Assembly: GCF_054482525.1 (NCBI RefSeq)
Contig: NZ_CM137006.1
DNA: 64,000 bases
Strand: one strand, 5' to 3'
Part shown: positions 17,850 to 23,744 of the stretch, one piece after another
Numbering within the stretch: position 1 is the stretch's first letter
Layout of the letters: every line of letters begins with the position of its first letter
Made by a program: the position numbers and the translations under genes
Notes under the pieces: model-generated
The model's database searches: none
What the model was told of the DNA's origin: nothing
Seen by the model: only the letters and a program-made list of their open reading frames with translations

Positions 17850-17971
17850 TAGTTATCTCTGTAATCCTTGCCCGTAAATTCGTGATAGCCGTCGTAAAGC
17901 TATCACCAGTTGGCGAAGATTTCGCCAGCCACGTCTACCCTTGTTATACCTCACACCGCAAGGAGACGATC

Positions 17972-19510
17972 ATGACCAATAATCCCCCTTCAGCACAGAT
18001 TAAGCCCGGCGAGTATGGTTTTCCTCTTAAGTTAAAAGCCCGTTATGACAACTTTATCGGCGGCGAGTGGGTAGCCCCTGCCGACGGCGAGTATTACCAG
18101 AACCTGACGCCGGTGACCGGGCAGCTGCTGTGCGAAGTGGCGTCTTCGGGCAAACGAGACATCGATCTGGCGCTGGATGCTGCGCACAAAGTGAAAGATA
18201 AATGGGCGCATACTTCGGTGCAGGATCGCGCGGCGATTCTGTTTAAGATCGCCGATCGGATGGAGCAGAACCTCGAACTGTTAGCGACCGCTGAAACCTG
18301 GGATAACGGCAAACCCATTCGCGAAACCAGTGCTGCCGATGTGCCGCTGGCGATTGACCATTTCCGCTATTTCGCCTCGTGTATTCGGGCGCAGGAAGGC
18401 GGTATTAGTGAAGTGGATAGCGAAACCGTGGCTTATCACTTCCACGAACCGTTAGGCGTGGTGGGGCAGATTATTCCGTGGAACTTCCCGCTGCTGATGG
18501 CGAGCTGGAAAATGGCCCCCGCGCTGGCGGCGGGCAACTGTGTGGTGCTGAAACCCGCACGTCTTACCCCGCTTTCTGTACTGCTGCTAATGGAAATCGT
18601 CGGTGATTTACTGCCGCCAGGCGTGGTGAACGTGGTCAACGGTGCAGGTGGGGAAATTGGCGAATATCTGGCGACCTCGAAACGCATCGCTAAAGTGGCG
18701 TTTACCGGCTCAACGGAAGTGGGCCAACAAATTATGCAATACGCTACGCAAAACATTATTCCGGTAACCCTGGAGCTGGGCGGCAAATCGCCAAATATCT
18801 TCTTTGCTGATGTGATGGATGAAGAAGATGCCTTTTTCGATAAAGCGCTGGAAGGCTTTGCACTGTTTGCCTTTAACCAGGGCGAAGTTTGCACCTGTCC
18901 AAGCCGTGCTTTAGTACAGGAGTCTATCTACGAACGCTTTATGGAACGCGCCATCCGCCGTGTCGAAAGCATTCGTAGCGGTAACCCACTCGACAGCGTG
19001 ACGCAAATGGGTGCGCAGGTATCTCACGGGCAACTGGAAACCATCCTCAATTACATTGATATCGGCAAAAAAGAGGGCGCAGACGTGCTCACCGGCGGGC
19101 GGCGCAAGCTGCTGGAAGGCGAACTGAAAGACGGCTACTACCTTGAACCGACTATTTTGTTTGGTCAGAACAATATGCGGGTGTTCCAGGAGGAGATATT
19201 TGGCCCGGTGCTGGCGGTGACCACCTTCAAAACGATGGAAGAAGCGCTGGAGCTGGCGAACGATACGCAATATGGCCTGGGCGCGGGCGTCTGGAGCCGC
19301 AACGGTAATCTGGCCTATAAGATGGGGCGCGGCATTCAGGCTGGGCGCGTGTGGACCAACTGTTATCACGCTTACCCGGCACATGCGGCGTTTGGCGGCT
19401 ACAAACAGTCGGGCATCGGACGCGAAACCCATAAGATGATGCTTGAGCATTACCAGCAAACCAAGTGCCTGCTGGTGAGCTACTCGGATAAACCGTTGGG
19501 GCTGTTCTGA
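17972..19510 (+). CDS. aldB: NAD(P)-dependent aldehyde dehydrogenase B
   Basis: Translation from ATG at 17972 ([33 protein letters not shown]...) gives 512 aa with ALDH motifs (ELGGKSP, catalytic Cys region); the 30 upstream codons of the ORF track are an extension. Confidence 0.93.
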
Positions 19511-19516
19511 TGTGAA

Positions 19517-19552
19517 AGGCAGGCAACGTTAATAGTTGTCTGCCTTTGTTTT
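19517..19552 (+). terminator. Rho-independent terminator after aldB, shared with the convergent gene
   Basis: Stem aggcaggcaac / gttgtctgcct (one mismatch) with gttaata loop followed by ttgtttt; the stop of the minus-strand 359-aa gene lies in the T-run. Confidence 0.6.
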
Positions 19553-20630
19553 AGTTGTATAAAGCGGCAGTCGCTTTTAACTCATCGCTGAAAGAATAAA
19601 TATCATCGAGAGATTCAATAGGATGGCGGGTTTCGTTTTTCTCTAAGTCAAATAAACCAATATATTTTTGATTTCGATTGAAATGTAATCTACAGAGTGG
19701 TTTTCGATTATTGTCATCTACAAGTATACCAAAATAGCTTTTTGTATCTCTGTGGACTATTCGTGGTGCATCAAGCACTACGCGGACTATAGCTTTAACA
19801 ATATGAAATCCTTCAAGTTCCTCCATAGTAGTGGCAATATCGGTTTCTTCTTTATTAATACATTCTACTTCCTCATTGTGTGAATTCGAATCAATTACAG
19901 ATAATGACCCACCACCTATTGCCGATTTCAATCTTTCGTTTATTTGAGAGCCAATATATTGATTGGCAGCTTTCTTTGTTAATTTTGCAAACGTATCTTT
20001 TACCTTTTGTGTTAACATACCTTCATAAATTCTTGCTGCAAAGAATTTTACAAAATCCTCTTCAGGATTATTCATTTGTGCATGGAGAACTTTTTTAATT
20101 AAACTAACATATTTTAATTCACCTGCAGCATTAATTATTGATTCCAAATCAAATGCTGATTTAGTAAGCTTTTTTATCTCGGGAACAACTGTTTCGTCTA
20201 AGTCAAGTAGATCTATCTCAAGAAATGGTTTTTCATCCATTTTATTAGGTGCTTCTAAATCAGTAAAAAATTTATAAACTTGTCCATTGGTTAGAATAGA
20301 TATTCTTGCATTTGTTACATGAAAGTATCGAAAAAGCTGTGAAGCATGATTTATATTTAGAGGATCACCAATTTTTTTGCATTCAATGAGAATCTGAACC
20401 TCGCTATTTTTTAAGATTGCATAGTCAATCTTTTCACCTTTCTTCGTTCCAATATCGCATACAAACTCTGGGATAACTTCGGTAGGATCAAAGACATCAT
20501 AACCTAACACATTGTTAATGAACGGCATTACGAAAGCATTTTTGGTAGCTTCCTCCGTTTCAATGACTCCGGCTTGTTGTTTTATTTTTGCGGATAATGA
20601 ATTCAGCTTATCTATAAACTCCATAGACAT
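19551..20630 (-). CDS. Uncharacterised 359-aa protein with N-terminal PD-(D/E)xK (HsdR-N-like) nuclease-fold domain; candidate defence gene
   Basis: ATG with AAGGAG RBS; N-terminal ~120 aa contain PEF...KIDYAIL...ILIECKK (E-D-ExK arrangement typical of HsdR N-terminal/Mrr-like nuclease domains); helical middle; unassigned C-terminal region VVLDAPRIVHRDTKSYFGILVDDNNRKPLCRLHFNRN; visibly AT-rich gene. Confidence 0.75.
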   Translation of the reverse strand: MSMEFIDKLNSLSAKIKQQAGVIETEEATKNAFVMPFINNVLGYDVFDPTEVIPEFVCDIGTKKGEKIDYAILKNSEVQILIECKKIGDPLNINHASQLFRYFHVTNARISILTNGQVYKFFTDLEAPNKMDEKPFLEIDLLDLDETVVPEIKKLTKSAFDLESIINAAGELKYVSLIKKVLHAQMNNPEEDFVKFFAARIYEGMLTQKVKDTFAKLTKKAANQYIGSQINERLKSAIGGGSLSVIDSNSHNEEVECINKEETDIATTMEELEGFHIVKAIVRVVLDAPRIVHRDTKSYFGILVDDNNRKPLCRLHFNRNQKYIGLFDLEKNETRHPIESLDDIYSFSDELKATAALYN

Positions 20631-21072
20631 TATAACTCCTTTTATATATATTTAATAAAAATGCGTTTGATAAAAATATAGAAAATATTTATATATTAAC
20701 GCCTTATCATTGGTCATAGTTAATGTATAACACACAAAAAATAATGTTTGCACATTGTAAATACAATGGTGAAACAAACTTGATATTTATCAAGAAAATA
20801 AAACAATGTCTTTTATTGGTTGTTTTAAACGTCCAATGAATACGAGTTGGAGCTATAGCAAGACTAGCTTCGATATCGCATGGATAATCTAATACAGATT
20901 TTTTAACACCTAATACTATGAGTTATATGTAAATTGCGAGCATCCTCGCATCTTTTCAACAAGTTACTGCACACCGTTATTCTCCTTCCGAGCGAGTCAA
21001 CTTTATCCCCCTGACGGCCCATATAAATCGCGCTATCGTGATTGTTATCGCTAATTGTGTGTGTATCGTGTG

Positions 21073-21078
21073 TATAAT
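21073..21078 (+). promoter_or_regulatory. Candidate -10 hexamer (TATAAT) for hicAB
   Basis: Perfect TATAAT 18 nt upstream of the hicA start, followed by GGAAGGG RBS-like sequence; no convincing -35 identified. Confidence 0.3.
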
Positions 21079-21095
21079 CATGGAAGGGCAGGGAT

Positions 21096-21281
21096 GTGAA
21101 AAGTGCAGACGTGATCGCTATCCTGAAGCAGCATGGCTGGGAACATATTCGAACCCGTGGCAGTCATCATCAGTTCCGCCACCCTGTTCATCCGGGTCTG
21201 GTGACGGTTCCGCACCCTAAAAAAGATATTAAGCCCGGTACGCTGGCGCAAATTGGGCGTCAGGCTGGTTTAACATTTTAA
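21096..21281 (+). CDS. hicA: HicA-family mRNA interferase toxin
   Basis: 61-aa ORF (GTG start) with GSHHQFRHP...HPKKDIKPGTLAQIGRQAGL, the HicA/YcfA-like signature; followed by hicB. Confidence 0.8.
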   Translation: MKSADVIAILKQHGWEHIRTRGSHHQFRHPVHPGLVTVPHPKKDIKPGTLAQIGRQAGLTF

Positions 21282-21297
21282 AATTTCAGGAGGCAAT

Positions 21298-21708
21298 ATG
21301 TTTTATCCCGCCTATATCCACAGTGATCCTGACGGCAGCGCCAGCGGTTTTTTCCCTGATGTTCCAGGCTGTTATTTTGCTGGTGATACGCTGGACAACG
21401 CTTTCCAGGATGCGCGAAGTGCACTTGTCGCGCACTTCGAAACCTTATGCGAGATGAATGAAGAGTTGCCGCTTCCAGGCTCTGTGGAAACACATCTGGT
21501 CCAGCGTGCGCAGGACTTTATTGGCGGGCAATGGTTGCTGGTGGATATCAATATGAATCAGTTCGAAGGTCGGGCTGAACGTATCAATATTACGATGCCG
21601 AAAAGATTACTGAACAAGATTGATACCTACGTGCGCAATAACCCAGACTACGCCAACAGAAGTGCGTTTCTGGCGGAAGCTGCCCGGCGTGTATTGCCGG
21701 GCGCTTAA
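21298..21708 (+). CDS. hicB: HicB-family antitoxin with C-terminal DNA-binding region
   Basis: 136-aa ORF 17 bp downstream of hicA; N-terminal HicB-like fold sequence and C-terminal RHH-like segment (ITMPKRLLNKIDTYV...AFLAEAARRVL). Confidence 0.8.
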   Translation: MFYPAYIHSDPDGSASGFFPDVPGCYFAGDTLDNAFQDARSALVAHFETLCEMNEELPLPGSVETHLVQRAQDFIGGQWLLVDINMNQFEGRAERINITMPKRLLNKIDTYVRNNPDYANRSAFLAEAARRVLPGA

Positions 21709-21779
21709 TCCCGCGTTTCGATGGTTGGCGGGCAACCGCACCGATATGTTGATACTGATAAGACGCGTTAAGCGTCGCA

Positions 21780-23744
21780 TCATGCGCTGGTTTCCTCATT
21801 CACCCAGATCCGCATTTCGCCTTCACCCCGGTTAGCCCAGCTAAACCACGGGATAAATGTCAGAGTTTGCGGCTGGCGTTTGGCTGGGGCATAGTCGTAA
21901 TGCCACAGCGGTTGCTGCTCTGGATTGCTCTGTTCATACCGGTAACCCGGTGCCTGGATTAAGATCTTATGGCGGAACAATCCTTTGCCTTCAAATGTCG
22001 TAAATGGCGCATCGGCGGGCAGCCACAGGTTATGCAGTGACTCGCCGTTGTCGGCCTGTTCCAGGCAATACACCAGCGGGCCGCGCTGAATCGCCACTTT
22101 TCCGGCGACGTGACGCACCAGCGGGTTACCGTAAACGCGACGTACCGGCATTGGCAAAGTCAGATTCAGCGTGTCACCCTCCTGCCATTCGCGGGTAATG
22201 TGCAAATACCCTTTACGAATATCCTGCTCGACCTCTTCCCCATTCAATATGATCTGCGGCTGTGTGCACCAGTCCGGCAGACGTAAAGCCAGCGTATGAC
22301 GTACCGGCTGGGGCGATTCGACCGCAATCGTCACCTGCTCCTGCCACGGATAGTTCCCGCTAACCCGCAGGCGCAACGTGCCATTTTCTACCGGCACTTC
22401 CATGCTGTTTCCTGCGTAGATGTTGATATACAACGCATCTTCACGCGGCGTGTAGAGATAATGACCAATCGAGGTCAGCACGCGGGCGATATTTGGCGGA
22501 CAACAAGCGCAGCCAAACCAACGCTGGCGGATCGGTTTAACGTGATCGTAGATATGGTTGAATTTCAGCGATTTTGGATGTACTTCCAGCGGATTCACAT
22601 AGAAGAAATGTTTGCCATCCAGTGCCATGCCGCCGAGCACAGTGTTGTACAGCGCGCGCTCCATCACATCGGCATATTGACTGTCGCCTTCCATTTCCAG
22701 CATTCGCCGGGCGAACATCATCAGGCCGATGGAAGCACAGCTTTCGGCGTATACCGTGTCATTCGGCAGATCGTAATCGCTGCTGAACGCTTCGCCGCTG
22801 CTTTGTGAGCCAATGCCGCCGGTAATATATAACTGACGCTGGGCCATATTGTTCCACAGCCGCAGGCAATCCTGACGCTTGCTTTCATCGTGACTTAAAC
22901 GCGCCAGATGTGCGACGCCAGTCATCAGATATACAAAGCGTACTGCATGTCCGATGGCGGTTTGTTGCTGTGCGATGGGCAAATGCGCCTGGCTGTAGGC
23001 TTTATCTTTCACCATCCACGCCGGGCCGTAGGTGTGCCAGTGCGAGGTCTGCCCGCGCTTTTCATATTCCTGGTCGTAATAGTGCGGTTGCGCACCACGC
23101 TGTTCGACAAAATAGTTCGTCAGCGCCAGGTAGCGCGGCTCTTCGGTCACTTCATACAGGCGCATTAGTGCCAGTTCAATTTCCGGGTGACCAGGATAAC
23201 CGTGTAACTTACTTTCACCTGGACCAAATACGCTGTCGATATGATCGGCCAGACGGCAAACCACTTCCAGCAAGCGCCGCTTGCCCGTGGCCTGGAAGAA
23301 GGCGACTCCGGCTTCAATCAGATGACCGGCGCAGTAAAGTTCATGACACTCTGCCAGATTGCTCCAGCGTTCTTCGGGTGCTTTTACCGTAAAGTAAGTA
23401 TTGAGATAGCCATCTTCGCACTGGGCGGAAGCGACCAGTTCGATTACCTCGTCGGCGGTTTTTTCCAGTTCGGCGTCCGGCTTCTGGCACAGCGACCAGG
23501 CTACCGCTTCCAGCCATTTGGCGACGTCGCTGTCCTGAAACACCATCCCGTAAAATTCACCCTCCTGAAGTCCGGCGGCAATGCGAAAGTTTTCAATCGC
23601 ATGGCTGGGTTCCGCTTCTGGGATACGATCGTTCAAGGCATCCCACTGATAAGGAATCACCACGTCGCGGACCAGTTGTTGGTACTGACCGAGGAACGGA
23701 TCGCTGACCGTCAGTTTATGCAGATCGACTTCCGAAATGTTCAT
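21780..23744 (-). CDS. Glycoside hydrolase family 127 (DUF1680, beta-L-arabinofuranosidase-like) protein
   Basis: 654-aa translation from ATG at 23744 (MNISEVDLHKL...) with perfect AAGGAG RBS; Cys-rich C-terminal CACCPPN motif and overall similarity pattern to HypBA1-type enzymes as recalled; ORF-track 670-aa version is an extension. Confidence 0.75.
   Translation of the reverse strand: MNISEVDLHKLTVSDPFLGQYQQLVRDVVIPYQWDALNDRIPEAEPSHAIENFRIAAGLQEGEFYGMVFQDSDVAKWLEAVAWSLCQKPDAELEKTADEVIELVASAQCEDGYLNTYFTVKAPEERWSNLAECHELYCAGHLIEAGVAFFQATGKRRLLEVVCRLADHIDSVFGPGESKLHGYPGHPEIELALMRLYEVTEEPRYLALTNYFVEQRGAQPHYYDQEYEKRGQTSHWHTYGPAWMVKDKAYSQAHLPIAQQQTAIGHAVRFVYLMTGVAHLARLSHDESKRQDCLRLWNNMAQRQLYITGGIGSQSSGEAFSSDYDLPNDTVYAESCASIGLMMFARRMLEMEGDSQYADVMERALYNTVLGGMALDGKHFFYVNPLEVHPKSLKFNHIYDHVKPIRQRWFGCACCPPNIARVLTSIGHYLYTPREDALYINIYAGNSMEVPVENGTLRLRVSGNYPWQEQVTIAVESPQPVRHTLALRLPDWCTQPQIILNGEEVEQDIRKGYLHITREWQEGDTLNLTLPMPVRRVYGNPLVRHVAGKVAIQRGPLVYCLEQADNGESLHNLWLPADAPFTTFEGKGLFRHKILIQAPGYRYEQSNPEQQPLWHYDYAPAKRQPQTLTFIPWFSWANRGEGEMRIWVNEETSA

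Follow-up and report, generated by a model that had tools for sequence, protein, structure and literature searches.

Two independent upstream regions between an HsdR-N-like gene and hicAB in Escherichia coli, and a predicted HicB operator at the hicA promoter

The gap between a leftward HsdR-N-domain gene and the hicAB operon of this E. coli chromosome is in all likelihood of composite origin: two independent 5′ regulatory regions lie back to back in it. The locus is a routine intergenic control region with two modules, and all of its sites are of known kinds. Within it, a HicB operator over the hicA −10 element is a well-supported prediction, while a core of the Sxy-dependent CRP (CRP-S) type and an FNR box are consensus-level leads. 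On balance, we consider it probable that the complete arrangement combines a composite gap, a HicB operator over the hicA −10, a CRP-S site upstream of it and an FNR-dependent promoter on the left. The original prediction had singled out one palindrome of the gap (P1, below) as a vague 'candidate operator'. Three predictions take its place: HicB at the GTGTGTAT repeats, Sxy/CRP at the CRP-S core and FNR beside P1. Transcription start sites, protein binding and the regulation by FNR, CRP-Sxy and H-NS discussed below are all predicted from sequence.

Organisation of the locus

The window is the whole stretch of DNA that was analysed, 64 kb in length. Its segment 19400-21800 matches the E. coli PCN033 chromosome with 100% identity. 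The gene order is yiaY, aldB, the HsdR-N gene (minus strand), the gap, hicA, hicB and a GH127 glycosidase gene (minus strand). The elements around the gap are the following:

17882-19510, plus strand: aldB, the gene preceding the 359-aa HsdR-N gene
19551-20630, minus strand: open reading frame of 359 aa with an HsdR-N domain (PD-(D/E)xK nuclease-like), served by the left part of the gap
20636-20641, minus strand: Shine-Dalgarno sequence AAGGAG of the HsdR-N gene, read from the sequence 5 nt before the ATG at 20630
21096-21281, plus strand: hicA, with a GTG start (Pfam HicA_toxin)
21298-21708, plus strand: hicB, RHH type (Pfam HicB_lk_antitox)

The 359-aa protein carries the RefSeq name 'type I restriction endonuclease'. 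The Pfam families HSDR_N and HSDR_N_2 match its residues 26-129 only, no NCBIfam match was retrieved, and PADLOC gives just a weak match to the nuclease region of type IIG enzymes. For HicB, the nearest solved structures are those of Burkholderia pseudomallei HicB (6g1n) and Yersinia pestis HicB3 (4p78). An HsdR-N-like gene and hicAB are neighbours again in Enterobacter, Lelliottia, Trabulsiella and several Pseudomonas, with differing relative orientations.

An Rfam scan of 19300-21900 returned nothing relevant. Small open reading frames inside the gap were rejected, as a ribosome-binding site was present in none. One of them, of 39 aa (20903-21022, minus strand), was additionally discarded because it is interrupted by a stop codon in allele N3.

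Two upstream regions of separate origin

The gap spans 465 bp (20631-21095), as originally delimited, and is bounded by the minus-strand start of the HsdR-N gene (20630) and the GTG of hicA (21096). Its GC content is 32.5%, compared with 50% for the 64-kb window. The gap had been described as strongly AT-rich. This is true of positions 20631-20931 (25.2% GC), but not of positions 20932-21095, where the GC content is 45.7%. The left part is a block of its own:

20631-20931, no strand assigned: AT-rich 5′ flank (25% GC) that moves with the HsdR-N-like gene, delimited by alignment of strains without this gene

In E. coli strains that have aldB and hicAB and lack the HsdR-N gene, the alignment to the window starts at 20932. 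Examples in which aldB is directly followed by hicAB are CFIAFB20190167, 21AH126 and EF5-18-41. To the left of the position equivalent to 20932, such strains have about 100 bp of unrelated DNA. The variable block in full covers 19512-20931. K-12-like strains lack the left block, and of hicAB they have kept only a remnant of the 3′ end of hicB.

The two parts also differ in how widely they are distributed. We detected the 301-bp left block in 191 of 5426 complete E. coli genomes, with one copy in each and 97.4-100% identity, whereas hicAB together with its 164-bp upstream region (20932-21095) was found in 505 E. coli genomes. Both the left block and hicAB are present in at least 189 of the 191. 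From the 191 genomes with the left block and the 505 with hicAB, it follows that approximately 314 genomes have hicAB without the palindrome originally flagged. No match to the left block was found among phages or true plasmids, and the matches obtained by pattern search in metagenomes all represented this one E. coli locus. The single copy per genome and the lack of phage or true-plasmid matches led us to reject a repeated or mobile element. The original view of a divergent control region thus holds in so far as the gap serves two divergent units, but the picture of a single region is misleading because its halves have separate evolutionary histories.

Silencing of the left block by H-NS, which had been suggested for AT-rich promoters of horizontal origin, is plausible. 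The 1,420 bp of the variable block (31.6% GC, falling to 25.2% in the 5′ flank, in a window of 50%) make up an extended (>1 kb) AT-rich stretch. The high-affinity H-NS motif TCGATAAATT (PMC2094087) has one weak 8/10 match in the gap, at 20784-20793, inside the palindrome P2 described below. Any H-NS binding would therefore rest on general AT-richness. Regarding horizontal acquisition, the block is patchily distributed (191/5426 genomes) and low in GC; yet orthologues are likewise convergent with aldB in Citrobacter, Salmonella and metagenome bins, where they occupy this very position.

A predicted HicB operator over the hicA promoter

Two conserved elements lie close to the start of hicA:

21059-21078, plus strand: tandem GTGTGTAT-C-GTGTGTAT (21059-21075) overlapping a perfect −10 element, TATAAT (21073-21078); predicted HicB operator and hicA-proximal promoter
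21031-21042, plus strand: conserved block CGCTATCGTGAT, with TATCGT at 21034-21039 (TAnnGT in all orthologues), from alignment columns

The TATAAT element sits 17 nt before the GTG of hicA, and the hicA-proximal start is predicted near 21085, about 11 nt before the GTG. The tandem that overlaps it is unique within the 64-kb window. In the form GTGTGTAT-N-GTGTGTATAAT, the tandem recurs in eight enterobacterial genera, always equally far from the hicA start, while its surroundings diverge. The orthologous loci that contain it belong to Escherichia sp., Trabulsiella, Pseudescherichia, Enterobacter, Yokenella, Metakosakonia and Serratia, and just two other blocks are conserved along with it in the hicA upstream region, which has diverged elsewhere. 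The repeats are also found with homologues of 44-58% identity from Salmonella, Proteus, Yersinia, Aeromonas and Azotobacter.

The type of repeat follows the β-strand of the RHH domain of HicB. Where this strand is ERIN(I/V)T (for instance ERINIT) or VRFNAT, the repeats are of the GTGTGTAT type, and where it is KLNIT or KKNVT, GGTTAT-type repeats occupy the same place. An operator would be expected to co-vary in this way with the strand by which HicB reads DNA. RHH-type HicB proteins, namely HicB3 of Y. pestis and HicB of B. pseudomallei, bind palindromic operators that flank or overlap the hicA −10, as far as these are described in a review (PMC11594946). Considering that segment 21059-21078 is repeated, lies over the −10, is conserved among orthologues and co-varies with the HicB strand, we predict with good confidence that it is the HicB operator. 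HicB, through its RHH fold, would bind the tandem GTGTGTAT over TATAAT and autoregulate hicAB.

The CGCTATCGTGAT block consists of nearly invariant columns in an alignment of eight sequences (E. coli, another Escherichia species and five other genera). It scores like a promoter element and could be the −10 of a promoter further upstream; otherwise it could be a second contact for HicB.

The flagged palindrome and its neighbours

The palindrome P1 is present at 20753-20768, as claimed. The gap contains two further perfect palindromes, cTTGATatttATCAAg (20779-20794) and TGCGAgcatccTCGCA (20935-20950), as well as the P3 hairpin, which had been overlooked. The four elements are:

20753-20768, no strand assigned: P1, CATTGTA-AA-TACAATG, with TACAAT on both strands (minus-strand TACAAT from 20759 to 20754)
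20779-20794, no strand assigned: P2, CTTGATA-TT-TATCAAG (cTTGATatttATCAAg), perfect 7-2-7, from the palindrome scan
20797-20817, no strand assigned: P3, 7-7-7 hairpin AATAAAA-CAATGTC-TTTTATT, from the palindrome scan; its loop varies in allele N3
20935-20950, plus strand: TGCGA-GCATCC-TCGCA (TGCGAgcatccTCGCA), perfect 5-6-5, CRP-S-type core and terminator-like hairpin followed by TCTTTTC, from the terminator scan

By itself, P1 is not beyond chance. At least one perfect palindrome (arms of at least 7, spacer of 0-10) arises in 44% of dinucleotide shuffles of the gap, and 6.8% hold one when the spacer is fixed at 2. The imperfect extension of P1 to 20745-20776, with 12/15 matches per arm, was equalled or beaten in 42 of 300 shuffles. 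P1, P2 and P3 together make three perfect palindromes against 0.78 expected, a number reached by 8% of shuffles. P1 is invariant across five E. coli alleles, among which divergence is just about 2%.

The proposal that HicB acts at P1, repressing hicAB or both divergent units from there, did not hold up. What speaks for it is that P1 is a perfect palindrome within the gap upstream of hicA, and that looping is conceivable, HicB tetramers having two DNA-binding units (PMC11594946). There is also a weak BS1-like sequence, ATAACACACAAAA (20725-20739), 9/10 complementary to 21055-21064. We judged this candidate for a distal HicB site to be a chance match, given its low complexity and its 6/8 match to the repeat unit. 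P1 itself is not at the hicA promoter: the TATAAT element (21073-21078) is 305 bp, and the GTG of hicA 328 bp, further downstream, and P1 lies away from the conserved repeats. Nor does it travel with hicAB (191 versus 505 E. coli genomes): its block is missing from about 314 of the 505 hicAB-bearing genomes, and P1 was absent from the E. coli alleles without the left block and from every orthologous hicAB locus examined, in seven other genera. It has no similarity to the GTGTGTAT operator repeats, and between 20500 and 21300 GTGTRTA or its complement occurs only at 21059-21076. Finally, known RHH HicB operators sit at the promoter, over or beside the −10 (PMC11594946). For these reasons, namely distance, absence with hicAB, lack of repeat similarity and the place of known operators, we reject this reading as highly improbable and are nearly certain that P1 is not a HicB operator. 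The expected action of HicB is thereby moved from P1 to the GTGTGTAT repeats over the −10.

Another dimeric repressor might instead occlude the −10 of the HsdR-N gene at P1, which is a perfect dyad with an imperfect extension to 32 bp and overlaps the best −10 on both strands. This seems unlikely, as no regulator gene is encoded within the 1.42-kb block and the palindrome is not conserved elsewhere. To our knowledge, it fits no E. coli regulator consensus; compared by eye with those of CRP, LexA, NarL (7-2-7), TyrR, Fur, ArcA, IHF and SlyA, it matched none.

A candidate FNR promoter for the HsdR-N gene

The core of P2, TTGATatttATCAA at 20780-20793, matches the FNR consensus TTGATnnnnATCAA (PMC3688515) in 10/10 positions. 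No other perfect match to TTGATnnnnATCAA exists in the 64-kb window, and such a match turned up in 0.25% of gap shuffles. The FNR and CRP-S motifs were both recognised after the palindromes had been seen, and a look-elsewhere factor applies; with an estimated 30 or so familiar motifs, the probability of a chance FNR match rises to roughly 0.07.

The P2 core lies 20 nt upstream of the minus-strand TACAAT (20759 to 20754) contained in P1. Among −10 hexamers of the coding strand in the 170 bp that precede the HsdR-N start codon, this TACAAT scores best. It lacks a good −35, and no strong complete sigma-70 promoter was found on the gene strand. With a start predicted 7 nt after TACAAT, the candidate FNR box would be centred at −39.5, the canonical position being −41.5. 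In K-12, sites at −41.5 ± 4 are found in 19 of 23 FNR-activated promoters (PMC3688515). If TACATT (20727 to 20722) were the −10, the box would be at −71.5, and class I geometries with this element are equally possible.

P1 would thus most likely be promoter DNA, its minus-strand TACAAT serving as the −10 of the HsdR-N gene. FNR bound at P2 would activate this gene in a class II geometry, and H-NS would probably cover the promoter, as at hlyE. We put forward an FNR-dependent promoter with P1 as its −10 only tentatively. If true, it would provide the first physiological cue for a widespread, uncharacterised nuclease-like gene.

The copies of the left block have all diverged by at most 2.6% (97.4-100% identical), and the upstream DNA of the nearest HsdR-N orthologues (84% protein identity; Citrobacter and metagenome) does not align. 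Upstream of 80 homologous loci in other species, FNR boxes were not enriched, and scanning metagenomes for the pattern of the palindromes yielded no alignable diverged copy. Neither P1 nor P2 therefore has phylogenetic support.

Alternatively, the palindromes between 20745 and 20817 are by-products of AT-richness with no site-specific regulator, in a curved, promoter-dense region coated by H-NS, and the FNR match is coincidental or 'silent'. This possibility deserves attention even if we do not favour it. An equal palindrome appears in 44% of shuffles and three in 8%, sigma-70-like sites are found on both strands of this AT-rich DNA, and the palindromes are unconserved beyond near-identical E. 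coli copies. Moreover, among predicted FNR sites of K-12 without a ChIP peak, approximately 90% are occupied by H-NS, IHF or Fis (PMC3688515). However, a 10/10 FNR consensus was seen in just 0.25% of shuffles, the box is at an activating distance from the best −10, and the two perfect palindromes share the same 7-2-7 form, of which 0.068 are expected per region.

A CRP-S-type core upstream of hicAB

The third palindrome, TGCGA-GCATCC-TCGCA, stands at the left boundary of the block linked to hicAB, some 150 bp ahead of hicA. CRP-S sites have TGCGA as their core half-site (PMC1635313). The element has the form TGCGA-N6-TCGCA with a C at position 6 in both half-sites, and this perfect form occurs once in the window, with 1e-4 occurrences expected in the gap.

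The core is perfect in Escherichia sp. L111 and matches 9/10 in the E. coli alleles without the left block. In Trabulsiella, where another gene adjoins it upstream, it also matches 9/10 and keeps its distance from hicA, at −161.5 (P = 0.002 versus shuffles). A 7/10 match was retrieved at −163.5 to −165.5 in three more genera. Overall, Enterobacter, Yokenella, Pseudescherichia, Metakosakonia, Serratia and the plasmid homologues have at best a degenerate core (7/10), and it is missing altogether from Serratia, Metakosakonia and all of the plasmid homologues.

The core is 141 bp from the predicted start of the sole strong promoter, and no convincing promoter was detected at a standard class I distance from it (about −62, −73, −93 or −100). 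With the candidate −10 elements TATAAA (21022-21027) and TATCGT (21034-21039), it would be at about −92 or −104. The spacing between the core and hicA differs among alleles by an indel of 9 bp. We rate the chance that the CRP-S site is functional as slightly below even. Sxy/CRP at 20935-20950 would probably serve an upstream hicAB promoter, and the same hairpin may also stop transcripts that arrive from the AT-rich block. If the CRP-S prediction is true, control of HicAB by the competence regulon reaches beyond the K-12 system, to a structurally different E. coli hicAB.

A pure terminator or insulator role, with a fortuitous CRP-S match, is a serious rival to this assignment, although we find it rather unlikely as a full account. 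The hairpin would then end read-through from aldB in strains without the left block and spurious plus-strand transcripts in carriers of it. A corollary would be a plus-strand RNA of about 140 nt, running from a TTGATA-16-AACAAT promoter (20780-20807) to the hairpin. The terminator scan was positive at 20935-20958 on the plus strand, with a 6-bp stem, four G-C pairs and the T-run TCTTTTC; it found this one site versus 0.8 expected in shuffles. Plus-strand sigma-70-like promoters are present upstream of the hairpin, and the plus-strand RNA 20740-20965 folds with z = −2.3. Against such a role, the stem falls to 4-5 bp in the alleles without the left block, the T-run is weak, and there is no Rfam match. 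A stem that is exactly TGCGA/TCGCA is expected in about 1 in 1000 hairpins of such shape. Furthermore, the Trabulsiella palindrome comes after a separate selB terminator, so that no second terminator is needed there.

Comparison with known regulatory systems

The hicAB part of the gap resembles the hicA3B3 locus of Y. pestis and hicAB of B. pseudomallei, with which it shares an RHH-type HicB (best PDB matches, 6g1n and 4p78). It also shares a repeated element over the hicA −10, like BS2 of the Y. pestis PhicA3 promoter and the B. pseudomallei site as portrayed in the review (PMC11594946). The Salmonella, Proteus and Yersinia homologues additionally carry an inverted upstream copy flanking the −35, as in the Y. 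pestis BS1/BS2 pair. The E. coli locus differs from this pair in having the −10-overlapping tandem only, with no adjacent inverted copy upstream.

For the HsdR-N part, the closest parallel is hlyE (clyA) of E. coli K-12. The sequence TTGATATTTATCAT in hlyE and TTGATATTTATCAA here are equal at 13/14 positions, and the hlyE site TTTGATATTTATCATA is one base apart from the P2 site. In either case, the site precedes the start codon by 130-160 bp, and the gene is AT-rich and patchy in its distribution. FNR and CRP activate the AT-rich hlyE promoter, whose silencing by H-NS is relieved by SlyA (PMC2156107), and H-NS masks the action of FNR at hlyE and its binding at many other sites (PMC3688515; PMC2156107). 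The two differ in geometry, hlyE being a proven class I promoter with its site at −61.5, whereas the −39.5 predicted for the present locus is class II-like. No good SlyA site was seen here.

The hicAB operon of K-12 has two promoters. According to published accounts, P1 of K-12 has a CRP-S site and is activated by Sxy/CRP (Turnbull & Gerdes 2017 via PMC11594946; bioRxiv 10.1101/330480), and HicB represses P2 of K-12, which is close to the start codon and gives rise mainly to HicB (PMC11594946; bioRxiv 10.1101/330480). The present locus likewise has a CRP-S-type core, some 150 bp before hicA, and in both loci a −10 element is found 17 nt before the GTG. Their −10/Shine-Dalgarno/GTG regions align with a score of 37, compared with 23 ± 3.3 for shuffles. 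A start about 11 nt before the GTG would favour synthesis of HicB over HicA, as at P2 of K-12. Given the upstream CRP-S core, the K-12 precedent and the aligning start regions, a two-promoter design of the K-12 kind is likely here. The differences are that the proteins are distantly related, K-12 HicB having an HTH domain instead of RHH (PMC11594946), and that no TGCGA-N6-TCGCA within 3 mismatches was found in K-12, whereas the core is perfect in the present locus. As a speculation to which we attach little weight, a solitary HsdR-N-type gene switched on by FNR from under H-NS silencing, in low oxygen such as that of the gut, could form a loosely coupled defence pair with an RHH-type hicAB. 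This hicAB would itself be tied to the Sxy/CRP-S competence regulon, as is its distant HTH-type relative in K-12, and the two operons would be a case of regulatory convergence.

Distribution and domain content of the HsdR-N-domain protein

The protein encoded on the minus strand at 19551-20630 is conserved very widely and closely. Its homologues (loci L004-L083 and L088-L092 of the comparison set) share 58-79% full-length identity and come from Enterobacteriaceae, Pseudomonas, Vibrio, Aeromonas, Caulobacterales and Actinobacteria. In every one of the dozen hosts examined, the GC content of the gene was below that of its flanks. The match to a known domain is confined to residues 26-129, while the other 230 residues matched no family in Pfam or NCBIfam.

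hicAB at the aldB-yiaW site

K-12-like E. coli strains retain the 3' end of hicB between aldB and yiaW:

L003 2762-2863 (window 21625-21737), hicB 3' remnant, 82% identical

A 49-bp piece of it is matched by about 3,900 genomes. Because this remnant persists, the ribbon-helix-helix (RHH) type hicAB probably occupied the site ancestrally and was lost by a later deletion.

Hairpins and annotation of the intergenic regions

Two inverted repeats were noted, the second of them inside the AT-rich block (20631-20931) that accompanies the HsdR-N-like gene:

19515-19552, hairpin GGCAGGCAAC / GTTGTCTGCC with A-runs and T-runs on its sides, between the convergent aldB and HsdR-N-like genes
20849-20871, inverted repeat GGAGCTA-N9-TAGCTTC

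The first, which looks like a bidirectional terminator, begins directly behind the stop codon of aldB, at the point where homology with other strains breaks off. The second is the strongest stem predicted in the plus-strand RNA of the gap. Within it, TAGCAAGACTA resembles the SlyA consensus TTAGCAAGCTAA, save for a 1-nt insertion.

Between the HsdR-N-like gene and hicA, one locus tag is missing from the RefSeq records of both PCN033 (RS19585; L002) and N3 (RS05410; L084). This jump in numbering in both records suggests that an earlier annotation held a feature in the gap that has since been withdrawn.

Variation upstream of hicAB

A 9-bp indel (GGCATTCCT) is located at about 20994, between GAGC and GAGT, in alignments A1 and A2. 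It alters the distance from the candidate CRP-S site to hicA, and is polymorphic both among carriers of the AT-rich block and among strains without it. All four pairings of position 2 of the CRP-S core (G or A) with its spacer (GCATCC or GTCTCC) are found. Together with the indel common to both strain groups, this sequence pattern indicates recombination inside the hicAB upstream region.

The block CGCTA-NN-GTGAT (21031-21042), about 20 bp upstream of the inferred HicB operator repeats, is nearly invariant in E. coli, a second Escherichia species and five further genera of enterobacteria. It could serve an upstream promoter as its -10 element (TAnnGT), or be a third operator repeat that has degenerated.

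The HsdR-N-like gene/hicAB locus shows signs of decay in some strains:

L001 1889-2073, frameshifted hicA, strain CFIAFB20190167
L085 221-1300, internal stop in the HsdR-N-like gene, strain ETEC1738
L110 about 1745, 2-bp deletion in one GTGTGTAT repeat of the inferred HicB operator, strain CUVET20-416

Pairing with hicAB in other genomes

The HsdR-N-like gene was found near RHH-type hicAB in 8 of the 82 homologous loci. Across the loci compared, the two were found as follows:

L006, L007, L113 and L115, adjacent HsdR-N-like gene and hicAB
L018, L026, L028, L037, L050 and L053, both within 3 kb

Several Pseudomonas carry the two no more than 3 kb apart. Their repeated pairing may reflect a functional link, or a hot spot or defence island that both share. 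A tail-to-tail arrangement with 3-11 bp between them is seen in Enterobacter, Lelliottia and Trabulsiella, whereas the E. coli arrangement is head to head.
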